From positions 2,640,001-2,672,000 of the forward strand of contig NZ_CP042905.2 in assembly GCF_008000775.2 (NCBI RefSeq): a DNA stretch of 32,000 nt, written 5' to 3'. This stretch comes from Promethearchaeum syntrophicum. Lineage in GTDB: Archaea; Asgardarchaeota; Lokiarchaeia; Sigyniarchaeales; Promethearchaeaceae. This document shows, piece after piece, positions 9,307 through 10,422 of this stretch. Numbering within the stretch: position 1 is the first letter of the stretch; each line of letters opens with the position of its first letter. The notes under the pieces are model-generated. The model was not told the DNA's origin. It saw only the letters and a list, made by a program, of their open reading frames with translations, and made no database searches. A program made the translations under genes and the position numbers.

Positions 9307-10422
9307 ATGGCAATTGGAATTTTAGTTATGCATTGGGATGAACGAGTTGGTGTTGAAATTATTGGAAAATATCCAAAAGAAATCGAATTAGATGAAAAAA
9401 CCTTAATGCAATTGTATTCTCAACATGAATTCACGGGTGAACCCGGTATGGTTTCTATAATGGCGGGTTCTACAAATCTTGCATCATATTATACTGGTCC
9501 TGAAAGTTCTGTCTATGTCATTATGGTCTTAAGTACTACCGAGGATGGAGATGCATATGAAGATGGTTTAGCGGAGACATCAAGACAAATTTTATCAAAT
9601 ATTGATTCAGAAACATTGGAGGCAGTTTTACCTTCATTATATCAACGTTTATCAGTGTATCCGACTTTAAATGAAGAACAACTTTTAGCGATGATATATT
9701 CAGATGGTCCCAAGAGAATGATATTGAAAAGATTACAACAAGAATCAGCTATACCTAAATCTGAATTGGCAATCTGGCTTAAGGACGCAATAAAGGATTC
9801 ATTTATTGATATTGAAAGTATTATTGCGAGCTTAGTGAAATCTACAATAATTAAAATTGCTTCAGTTAAAGGACTTGCAACAGATGTAGCTTTTCTTAAT
9901 GAAGATATTATGATTTTGCGCAGACCACCAGTACATTTATTCTTAGATCCAAGTGAACATCATTTACCAAAGGCACTAAAAGACTCTTATAAAAACCAAG
10001 TTCGTACATTCTTTAAAAATTACAAACCTACAGAAAGTGACAATTTGGAGATTATCAATAAAGTTATTTTAGATCCTCAATGTTATGAAGTTTTGAAATT
10101 ACTTCGGGAGGCAATGGTAACTAAGAATGATATTGAGAAATTAAGGAAAAAAGGTGTAGAAGATATTGATGACACTTTGAAGTCTTTATGGGATTCTAAA
10201 ATGATTGCAGTTTTTCAAGATGAATCTGGTACGGAATATTATTGTTTAATTACAGATTTCTATGCTTCTTTATATTATCCTAGATATAACTTGGATACAA
10301 TTAGAAAGCAGTATATTAGCAAATCTCAAAATCCTAAAGCATTATTAAAAGCATTGGATATAATGAGGGAAGAATATATTTCAATGATTAAAATTAGAAA
10401 AATTTCTGCAAAAACTAAATAG
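9307..10422 (+). CDS. Hypothetical cytoplasmic protein (371 aa) with a predicted longin-like N-terminal domain followed by two winged-helix-like modules; no family recognised
   Basis: ATG start with a GGAGG RBS. No signal peptide or TM segment is present. By-eye secondary-structure pattern of residues 1-120 is beta-beta-alpha-beta-beta-beta-alpha-alpha: IGILVMHW / GVEIIGKY / EKTLMQLYSQH / GMVSIMAG / NLASYYTG / VYVIMVLS / YEDGLAETSRQILSNI / LEAVLPSLYQRL. Two helix-rich, wHTH-like blocks lie at about residues 125-200 and 255-320. Confidence 0.6.
   Translation: MAIGILVMHWDERVGVEIIGKYPKEIELDEKTLMQLYSQHEFTGEPGMVSIMAGSTNLASYYTGPESSVYVIMVLSTTEDGDAYEDGLAETSRQILSNIDSETLEAVLPSLYQRLSVYPTLNEEQLLAMIYSDGPKRMILKRLQQESAIPKSELAIWLKDAIKDSFIDIESIIASLVKSTIIKIASVKGLATDVAFLNEDIMILRRPPVHLFLDPSEHHLPKALKDSYKNQVRTFFKNYKPTESDNLEIINKVILDPQCYEVLKLLREAMVTKNDIEKLRKKGVEDIDDTLKSLWDSKMIAVFQDESGTEYYCLITDFYASLYYPRYNLDTIRKQYISKSQNPKALLKALDIMREEYISMIKIRKISAKTK

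Follow-up and report, generated by a model that had tools for sequence, protein, structure and literature searches.

A longin and winged-helix protein encoded in cassettes with giant surface proteins of Asgard archaea

Asgard archaea encode many longin, roadblock and small-GTPase proteins. In eukaryotes, NPRL2 is the GTPase-activating protein (GAP) for RagA, and the winged helices of NPRL2, NPRL3 and ESCRT-II are protein-binding modules. NPRL2 and NPRL3, the closest described counterparts of the protein considered here, have an N-terminal longin domain followed by at least two repeated domains of the aaaabb winged helix-turn-helix (HTH) type (Levine et al., PMC3747258), and small GTPases repeatedly use longin domains as platforms (PMC3747258). 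For the longin GAP complexes, it has been documented that W33-D34 and G38-P39 of C9orf72 are essential and line the nucleotide pocket (PMC12290439). NPRL2-like longin proteins are abundant in Asgard archaea, where they are an already known category, catalogued by Liu et al. (bioRxiv 10.1101/2020.10.19.343400; PMC9834061 Supplementary Table 2). We analyzed a 32,000-nt stretch of Promethearchaeum syntrophicum (contig NZ_CP042905.2, positions 2,640,001 to 2,672,000), hereafter the window, and in it the open reading frame (ORF) at 9307..10422 on the forward strand. This ORF encodes a small protein of 371 aa that we refer to as T; the giant protein encoded directly upstream is referred to as G.

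Pairing of T with giant surface proteins

The T ORF begins with ATG and includes its stop codon within the span given in the ORF list. In this AT-rich window (GC 0.24-0.41), it clearly is a gene, since the best homologs match at E=1e-215. A sequence-only reading of the window had taken the product for an orphan with a longin-like fold, operon-coupled to a surface receptor. The orphan status did not hold: 497 homologs were found at E<=1e-3, 451 cluster representatives (50% identity clusters) matched at the same threshold in a profile search of 1.84 billion, and 280 T loci were found in a genome set with a single representative for each GTDB species. The full-length homologs are nearly all 365-385 aa long, and none has a precomputed Pfam domain. 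T itself gave zero matches above threshold, to MarR/PadR-type regulators or to any other family, in searches of Pfam, NCBIfam and PDB sequences.

Named sources of the homologs include Candidatus Lokiarchaeum ossiferum, with several paralogs, Harpocratesius and Promethearchaeia. The nearest relatives are encoded in metagenome-assembled genomes (MAGs) of Promethearchaeum sp. (identity 86-87% in the genome scan and as high as 89% for metagenome proteins), and homologs with 50-65% identity are present in MAGs labelled Loki-, Hel- and Thorarchaeota by their submitters. The organism names shown for T loci are all Asgard (Promethearchaeati), bar two short contigs, L029 (1210 bp) and L042 (13.3 kb), assigned to MAGs named Hyphomicrobiales bacterium and Nanopelagicaceae bacterium. 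These two contigs probably were mis-binned, given that one of them (L042) carries the Asgard gene order. In an alignment of 36 T sequences (A1; mean column identity 65%), the conserved stretches are an N-terminal motif, M.WDER.G.E....YP, and a block, VT.ND.EKL.KKGV.

G is an adhesin-like protein with a signal/anchor at its N-terminus, both FG-GAP and Ig-like/CarboxypepD_reg-like repeats, and a wealth of glycosylation sequons (40 N-x-S/T). Pfam detected FG-GAP at aa 269-285 and FG-GAP_3 (E=4.4e-17) in three stretches, the best at aa 452-511, with CarboxypepD_reg and SpaA sub-threshold. A single strong hydrophobic segment was observed at the C-terminal end in a Kyte-Doolittle scan, and the tail beyond it has basic residues at its start, in keeping with a position in the cytoplasm. 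T starts 3 nt past the stop codon of G, the junction reading ACAGGAGGCATATAAAAATG, and the ribosome-binding site of T lies within the last codons of G, so translation of the two proteins probably is coupled. The operon coupling to a surface receptor, proposed from this locus, was thus borne out by the spacing and by the conserved gene order described below.

In every homolog locus first inspected, T followed a giant gene, with 0-3 nt spacing or overlap. Among the 77 loci of species genomes used for a systematic check, 72 had a match to a profile of the giants' tails directly upstream of T; of the five misses, four have <300 nt of sequence on that side, leaving 72 of 73 testable loci with the pair. 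The distance from the G stop to the T start is -7 to +1 nt in almost all loci. A Shine-Dalgarno-like pentamer is present <=20 nt from the T start in 75/75 loci; in each of the 25 sequences listed, it is either GGAGG or AGGAG. GGAGG encodes a conserved Gly-Gly, and almost all partner giants accordingly have 'GG' near the C-terminus, a feature explained by the embedded ribosome-binding site. We had considered this 'GG' as a processing or ubiquitin-like signal and rejected the idea for the same reason. The sole locus with full upstream sequence but no giant or tail before T (L072, around 10001) has only a 25-aa ORF there and carries a second T copy 5.7 kb downstream; this exception may be due to a deletion or an assembly problem. 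A search with the tail profile alone returned only 20 short contig-end fragments, and the distribution of the tail was taken from the loci instead.

No third conserved gene emerged upon clustering of 756 flanking ORFs. Only G and T are common to the clades, and the frequent flanking genes (RuBisCO-like, leucine-rich repeat, aminotransferase and others) represent clade-specific synteny. One cluster (c28), which adjoins T in three loci, is aminotransferase-like by eye and unrelated to T.

The partner giants range from ~1,300 to >3,300 aa (1355-2598 aa in the homolog loci first inspected). The Pfam content of their ectodomains varies by locus (FG-GAP, Laminin_G_3, DUF2341), and the transmembrane helix and a conserved cytoplasmic tail of ~80-90 aa align across the giants of homologous cassettes. 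In the tail alignment (A2), the motif YRxxQxxxIPxF[VI]K...K.I is followed by ...W..[LI][DG].., with P38, K42 and W78 invariant. We also found natural fusions of the two genes, represented by seven cluster representatives within P0122-P0129. In these, ectodomain, transmembrane helix, tail, a basic linker of ~30 aa and T follow each other in one polypeptide, and four of the fusions were verified as uninterrupted genes on contigs. The fusions strongly indicate a joint function of G and T, with T on the cytoplasmic side, and the G-T partnership is well supported overall.

Within this partnership, T is more conserved than G. L. ossiferum encodes three G-T pairs in tandem (L001 2488-19714, equivalent to L010/L011; CP104013, ~1.85-1.88 Mb), in which the T proteins are 99% identical, the tails 53-63% and the membrane-proximal ectodomains 23-37%. 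DNA windows inside the T ORF are 87-100% identical across the array; identity climbs from ~0.5 to 0.9-1.0 in the ~100 nt before the T start and drops right after the T stop. This pattern points to gene conversion restricted to T, or to a very recent spread of T without G. Two T copies are present in 20 of the 77 loci, and for most of these, conservation decreases from T to tail to ectodomain; one locus, L054, is reversed with regard to the ectodomain. Judged by these identities, T is under far stronger constraint than G.

Predicted fold of T and its described relatives

An AlphaFold2 model of T built from A1 (mean predicted local distance difference test score (pLDDT) 90.6; predicted template-modelling score (pTM) 0.82) contains, in residues 1-116, strands at 2-11, 15-22, 47-53, 56-62 and 69-76 and helices at 30-43, 81-98 and 104-116, with block-mean pLDDT of 82-91. 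The resulting order, beta-beta-alpha-beta-beta-beta-alpha-alpha, is that of a longin domain; a roadblock domain would begin with a helix. The model thereby agrees with the strand and helix order that the sequence-only reading had guessed for residues 1-120, and it gives no other fold for this region. Foldseek searches against the PDB matched the longin domains of Sec22b, Ykt6 and VAMP7 with a probability of 1.00 (template-modelling (TM) score on the target 0.47-0.54, E 3e-3 to 4e-2), and further matches were to longin subunits of AP, COPI and TRAPP and to tri-longin guanine nucleotide exchange factors.

The most conserved surface elements of T are the longin beta1-beta2 hairpin and helix alpha1. 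In A1, W10 and G15 of the hairpin are invariant and D11, E12 and R13 are at least 90% conserved. The same earlier reading had likened the N-terminus to the opening of longin/uDENN-type domains, and this likeness holds as well: W10-D11-x3-G15 is spaced as W33-D34...G38-P39 of C9orf72, the pocket motif of longin GAP complexes, and the segment aligns with FHPTLGP of NPRL2.

Two winged-helix modules follow, at ~120-207 and 242-325, and take in both sequence blocks that had been singled out as winged HTH candidates. The first has helices at 123-132, 134-145, 151-161 and 169-178 and strands at 148-150, 182-185, 194-197 and 200-206, so that a wing of two to three strands comes after four helices; D168, which borders the would-be recognition helix on its N-terminal side, is invariant in A1. 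The second includes the block VT.ND.EKL.KKGV, also invariant. The C-terminal region, aa 326-371, is the least conserved part of T, and some homologs carry Lys/Glu-rich or other extensions there (P0115, P0133).

For the winged helices, Foldseek gave probabilities of 0.35-0.84 to RPC62, CodY and Phr, and the probability for T against ESCRT-II VPS22 was ~0.83. ESCRT-II (Vps22/EAP30, Vps25, Vps36) has tandem winged helices as in T but lacks the N-terminal longin domain. The comparison with ESCRT-II subunits drawn earlier amounts to a generic winged-helix resemblance. No EAP30/ESCRT-II Pfam profile matched T, and no ESCRT genes are present in the window or the locus flanks.

The combination of longin and winged helices, which the first analysis could assign to no named family, does have a named precedent. 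In the predicted model, the layout of T is the NPRL2/NPRL3 (GATOR1) architecture (PMC3747258), and the top two Foldseek matches, 9h4q_T and 8adl_S, both whole-length with a probability of 0.8-0.9, are yeast Npr2 (8adl_S is Npr2, and a chain identity check found the identical sequence in entry 9h4q). Human GATOR1 follows at rank 23 with 7t3b_B, a chain of 362 residues; the E-values are weak throughout. T and NPRL2 share the domain order, are of nearly the same size (371 and 380 aa) and have in common an opening beta1-loop-G-beta2-YP pattern. The attachment of T is different: its partner, in some cases within one polypeptide, is a giant surface protein of the plasma membrane instead of a lysosomal scaffold. 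In C9orf72-SMCR8 and FLCN-FNIP, which share the hairpin spacing noted above, a DENN module follows the longin domain where T has winged helices, and the arginine finger of those complexes is not evident in T.

The Asgard 'NPRL2-like longin domain' asCOG families (Liu et al. 2020/2021) are, like T, Asgard-specific and Pfam-less, and TPR-fused relatives likewise are labelled NPRL2-like. The T family probably belongs among these asCOGs, the candidate being cog.008476 + cog.000164. We noted two adjacent paralogs of 1046 and 1020 aa (L083 4826-11063) in which a divergent T-like module is fused to SIR2_2 and TPR; neither adjoins a giant surface gene, and a TPR-only fusion is also present among the homologs (P0199). 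These fusions suggest that T is a portable module.

Table 1. Features of the G-T cassette and of the GTPase-flanked fusion loci. Positions refer to the window, except in the last row, where they refer to the contigs of the respective loci.
Feature	Position	Strand	Basis and remarks
G, giant 1610-aa single-pass surface protein	4472..9304	+	ORF, Pfam, hydrophobicity scan
FG-GAP (integrin-alpha-like beta-propeller) region of G, ~aa 269-511	5276..6004	+	Pfam
Transmembrane helix of G, aa 1512-1531, FYMLIVIGAVLILVGSLVGY	9005..9064	+	Kyte-Doolittle scan; aligns with the transmembrane helices of all partner giants
Tail of G, 79 aa, conserved, putative cytoplasmic	9065..9301	+	Tail alignment A2
GGAGG Shine-Dalgarno sequence for T	9293..9297	+	Inside last G codons, 9 nt before ATG
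T, soluble 371-aa protein	9307..10422	+	ORF, homologs, AlphaFold2; hydrophobic segment absent (maximum Kyte-Doolittle value 1.45)
Longin domain of T, aa 1-118, acidic (isoelectric point (pI) 4.2)	9307..9660	+	AlphaFold2, Foldseek, pI
Beta1-beta2 hairpin motif W10-D11-E12-R13-x-G15	9334..9351	+	Conservation in A1
Winged helix 1, aa 120-207	9664..9927	+	AlphaFold2; family pI median 5.7
Linker, aa 208-241, with helix 222-237 and conserved RxPP motif (R205, P207, P208)	9928..10029	+	AlphaFold2, alignment
Winged helix 2, aa 242-325, four helices and three-stranded wing	10030..10281	+	AlphaFold2, conservation, pI
C-terminal helices (two), aa 326-371, basic (pI ~10)	10282..10419	+	AlphaFold2, pI, conservation
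GTPase-flanked fusion loci	L084 3733-15565; L085 11017-11937; L086 6255-7238	GTPase genes opposite to fusion	Contigs

An adaptor role for T and competing explanations

Given the partnership with G, we favor a reading, at a probability of roughly 0.55, in which T supplies giant, variable Asgard surface receptors with a constant cytoplasmic module, an adaptor or signalling unit, docked on their tails and serving as a small-GTPase platform and not as a DNA binder. T would be co-transcribed with G, with translation probably coupled, and would dock on the conserved G tail at the inner face of the membrane. Like other longin modules, it may act there as an adaptor or platform for a Rag/Arf/Rab-like small GTPase, with the winged helices making protein-protein contacts instead of binding DNA. 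Ligand binding by the variable ectodomain outside could then be passed, via T, to GTPase-controlled processes inside. Integrin-type receptors, with their talin and kindlin adaptors, offer a likeness that is functional only: a large FG-GAP ectodomain, a single transmembrane helix and a short conserved tail. By this analogy, the tail of G presumably recruits a soluble adaptor; the adaptors are not homologous, and G has no beta-subunit.

Genes near T in other genomes bear on the GTPase part of this reading. Genes for roadblock plus Rab/Ras-like GTPase proteins (306-327 aa) were found close downstream of fused G-T genes in all three loci with flanking sequence. They are convergent to the fusions, with no gene in between in L084 and L085 and a single intervening gene in L086, and L084 has, divergently upstream, a further gene for a 651-aa double GTPase. 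In one clade, where T is ~51% identical to the window protein, a 311-aa GTPase of the Gtr1/RagA family (Pfam E=3.4e-25) is encoded four genes (~7 kb) upstream of G in 21 loci (L058 2326-3261 and 20 others). This co-location is intriguing but represents clade-level synteny, and a Gtr1/RagA-like gene is absent from the window clade. The case for a GTPase client of T, to which the resemblance of the W-D-x3-G hairpin to the longin GAP pocket motif also belongs, is suggestive but weak.

Several observations weigh against the adaptor reading. Two of the three fusion loci are syntenic and therefore not independent, no GTPase gene is found in the 32-kb window or within 10 kb of the 18 closest loci, and the GTPase neighbors elsewhere lie on the other strand or several genes off, again in syntenic, non-independent loci. 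The sole model that includes both tail and T, an AlphaFold2 prediction of the fusion P0123 from an 8-sequence alignment, is unreliable (pLDDT 59, pTM 0.36). The Foldseek E-values are weak (best 1.5e-3), and the full-length TM-scores of ~0.2 imply that the domains are similar and their packing different.

The sequence comparisons with NPRL2 point in the same direction. At E<=1, Pfam longin, NPR2 (PF06218), NPR3 (PF03666) and DENN matched none of the 36 T members. Alignment of A1 with 14 vertebrate NPRL2 sequences by hhalign gave a probability of 0.4%, which, with so shallow an NPRL2 profile, is not a strong negative. HMMER comparisons of T with a vertebrate-only NPRL2 set were non-significant in both directions (E >=0.04, with values of about 1-3), the best of these alignments being in register (T 5-57 with NPRL2 10-63). 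The beta4-beta5 loop of T, S60-Y61-Y62-T63-G64-P65-E-x-x, has no conserved Arg, and Lys is present in one subclade only; the arginine finger of human NPRL2, Arg78, was placed in this loop by secondary-structure register and not by superposition.

It is possible, though doubtful, that T functions as a scaffold independently of any GTPase, dimerizing through its longin sheet and winged helices and thereby clustering the giants or tying them to cytoskeleton or ESCRT-type machinery. The absence of a GTPase gene near the window cassette is in line with such a role, as are the Foldseek matches to NPRL2-NPRL3, Mon1-Ccz1 and ESCRT-II, in which longin and winged-helix domains are classic dimerization and assembly modules. 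Translational coupling and the fusions suggest equal amounts of G and T, and some members (P0115) have C-terminal Lys/Glu extensions that are coiled-coil-like. However, the top-conserved hairpin and helix alpha1 are the very part that, in complexes of longin GAPs, forms the lining of the nucleotide pocket, and it is GTPase genes that flank the fused G-T genes.

We consider it unlikely that T is a winged-helix transcription factor, held at or released from the membrane by the receptor tail in the manner of anti-sigma/sigma pairs or, for the fusions, by Notch-type release, a form of one-component trans-membrane signalling. The longin domain and second winged helix are acidic (pI 4.4 for the latter, range 4.35-5.41 over all members, next to the median of 5.7 for the first winged helix), acidic residues are conserved at the would-be recognition helices, as for the invariant D168, and HTH families stay below threshold in Pfam and NCBIfam, all of which argues against DNA binding. 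A sub-threshold eWH_GTF3C1 signal in 11 of 36 members and a MarR_2 match (E=0.0056) in one divergent member would nevertheless fit a regulator, as would the two winged-HTH-like modules of the model and the Foldseek matches to the sensor and winged-HTH regulators CodY, Phr and Bd2879 (probability 0.5-0.8). Existing labels also fall on this side: the asCOG label probably applied to the T family includes 'HTH domain' (category K), and a JGI record names one homolog (P0044) 'ArsR family regulator'. Against them stand the protein-binding role of the NPRL2/3 and ESCRT-II winged helices and the fusions, in which T is permanently tethered ~110 aa from the membrane. In a weak test for an operator-like motif upstream of 49 G genes, only A/T runs were found.

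That T is a true functional NPRL2 equivalent, providing the catalysis in a GATOR1-like GAP complex that acts on a Rag-family GTPase, seems highly improbable. Domain order, size, the best structural matches (Npr2/NPRL2), the Gtr1/RagA-family GTPase syntenic in 21 loci and the in-register HMMER alignments all would suit this assignment, but the Pfam NPR2/NPR3 and hhalign signals are absent, Arg is not conserved in the Arg78-equivalent loop, and the RagA-like gene is missing from the window clade. In the GP motif that precedes beta2 in GAP-type longins, G15 is invariant in T, with V/T/A/I instead of Pro at the next position and a C9orf72-like W-D pair located five residues upstream. Clustering of the flanking ORFs likewise gave no conserved NPRL3-like or DEPDC5-like partner gene near T. 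Membership of T in the NPRL2 family proper is not established, and neither sequence-level membership nor a catalytic arginine is supported.

Hardly to be credited is a role as chaperone, targeting or assembly factor that serves only to make or export G: tight translational coupling, near-obligate adjacency and the longin-like SRX domain of SR-alpha, which acts in protein targeting (PMC3747258), agree with it, but T in the fusions is C-terminal to the transmembrane helix, and therefore made after translocation of the ectodomain and still attached, the constraint on T is far above that on G, and T-like modules exist without G, fused to SIR2_2 and TPR.

Wider implications and other genes of the window

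Our literature searches found no description of the coupling of such longin proteins to giant surface proteins via a conserved tail, of the embedded ribosome-binding site, of the fusions, or of a homogenized T beside a diverged G. The cassette gives an abundant longin family a testable context, at the cytoplasmic face of giant, fast-diversifying surface proteins. On a cautious reading, it is a conserved, unnamed two-component surface module that evolves as 'constant subunit, variable subunit'. If T recruits or regulates a GTPase, as the adaptor reading would have it, the cassette would amount to prokaryotic receptor-to-GTPase signalling built from parts used in eukaryotic GATOR1-type complexes. 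This would bear on how surface contacts, for example syntrophic cell-cell contacts, may have become linked to the control of internal membranes or the cytoskeleton before eukaryogenesis. With homologs in cultured or complete-genome lineages (Lokiarchaeum ossiferum; Promethearchaeum MAGs at 86-87%), biochemical tests are feasible.

A more sweeping proposal, which we put forward only tentatively and consider rather doubtful, is that T, an NPRL2-like longin module either encoded on its own or fused, is the output domain of a family of Asgard trans-membrane receptors and binds and regulates a Rag/Arf/Rab-like GTPase at the plasma membrane. The longin GAP complexes that serve nutrient signalling in eukaryotes (GATOR1, folliculin, C9orf72-SMCR8) would then descend from the cytoplasmic part of surface receptors for adhesion or sensing. 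The giant ectodomains, diversified next to a homogenized constant subunit, would correspond to the surface structures of Lokiarchaeal cells and would sense contacts.

Directly upstream of G, the window encodes a 742-aa protein with seven PKD domains (1962-4190, +). The same gene lies ahead of the cassette in L006, the closest MAG locus, and this second surface protein therefore belongs to the local neighborhood. Downstream, a gene resembling those of ADP-forming acyl-CoA synthetases (CoA_binding/Succ_CoA_lig) is convergent to T, and a gene for a 903-aa Eco57I/MmeI-type methylase lies farther away, both within 10447-16233. The order of these two genes is kept in L007, L009 and L014 (Promethearchaeum MAGs and one L. 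ossiferum cassette), and the window locus therefore is orthologous to the L. ossiferum locus with partner P0030.

Three other regions of the window, all on the reverse strand, drew our attention. In a 251-aa ORF at 17157-17912, which has no Pfam match, the two termini are helical and enclose a long repeat rich in proline, with GPPSGPPRA / GPPKA as its units; such proline-rich tracts are profilin ligands in eukaryotes. This ORF accounts for the local rise in GC to 0.41 at 17-18 kb, for which RNA genes were considered as a cause and none found. At 24033-26549, three tandem paralogs of the histidine-phosphatase superfamily, branch 1, are encoded (His_Phos_1, E=1e-29 to 1e-34). Finally, the 307-aa protein encoded at 18057-18980 gave matches to DUF4350 / ABC_transp_aux and weaker ones to OST48_N and the GIFT domain of IFT52, eukaryote-associated family names found here on an archaeal protein.

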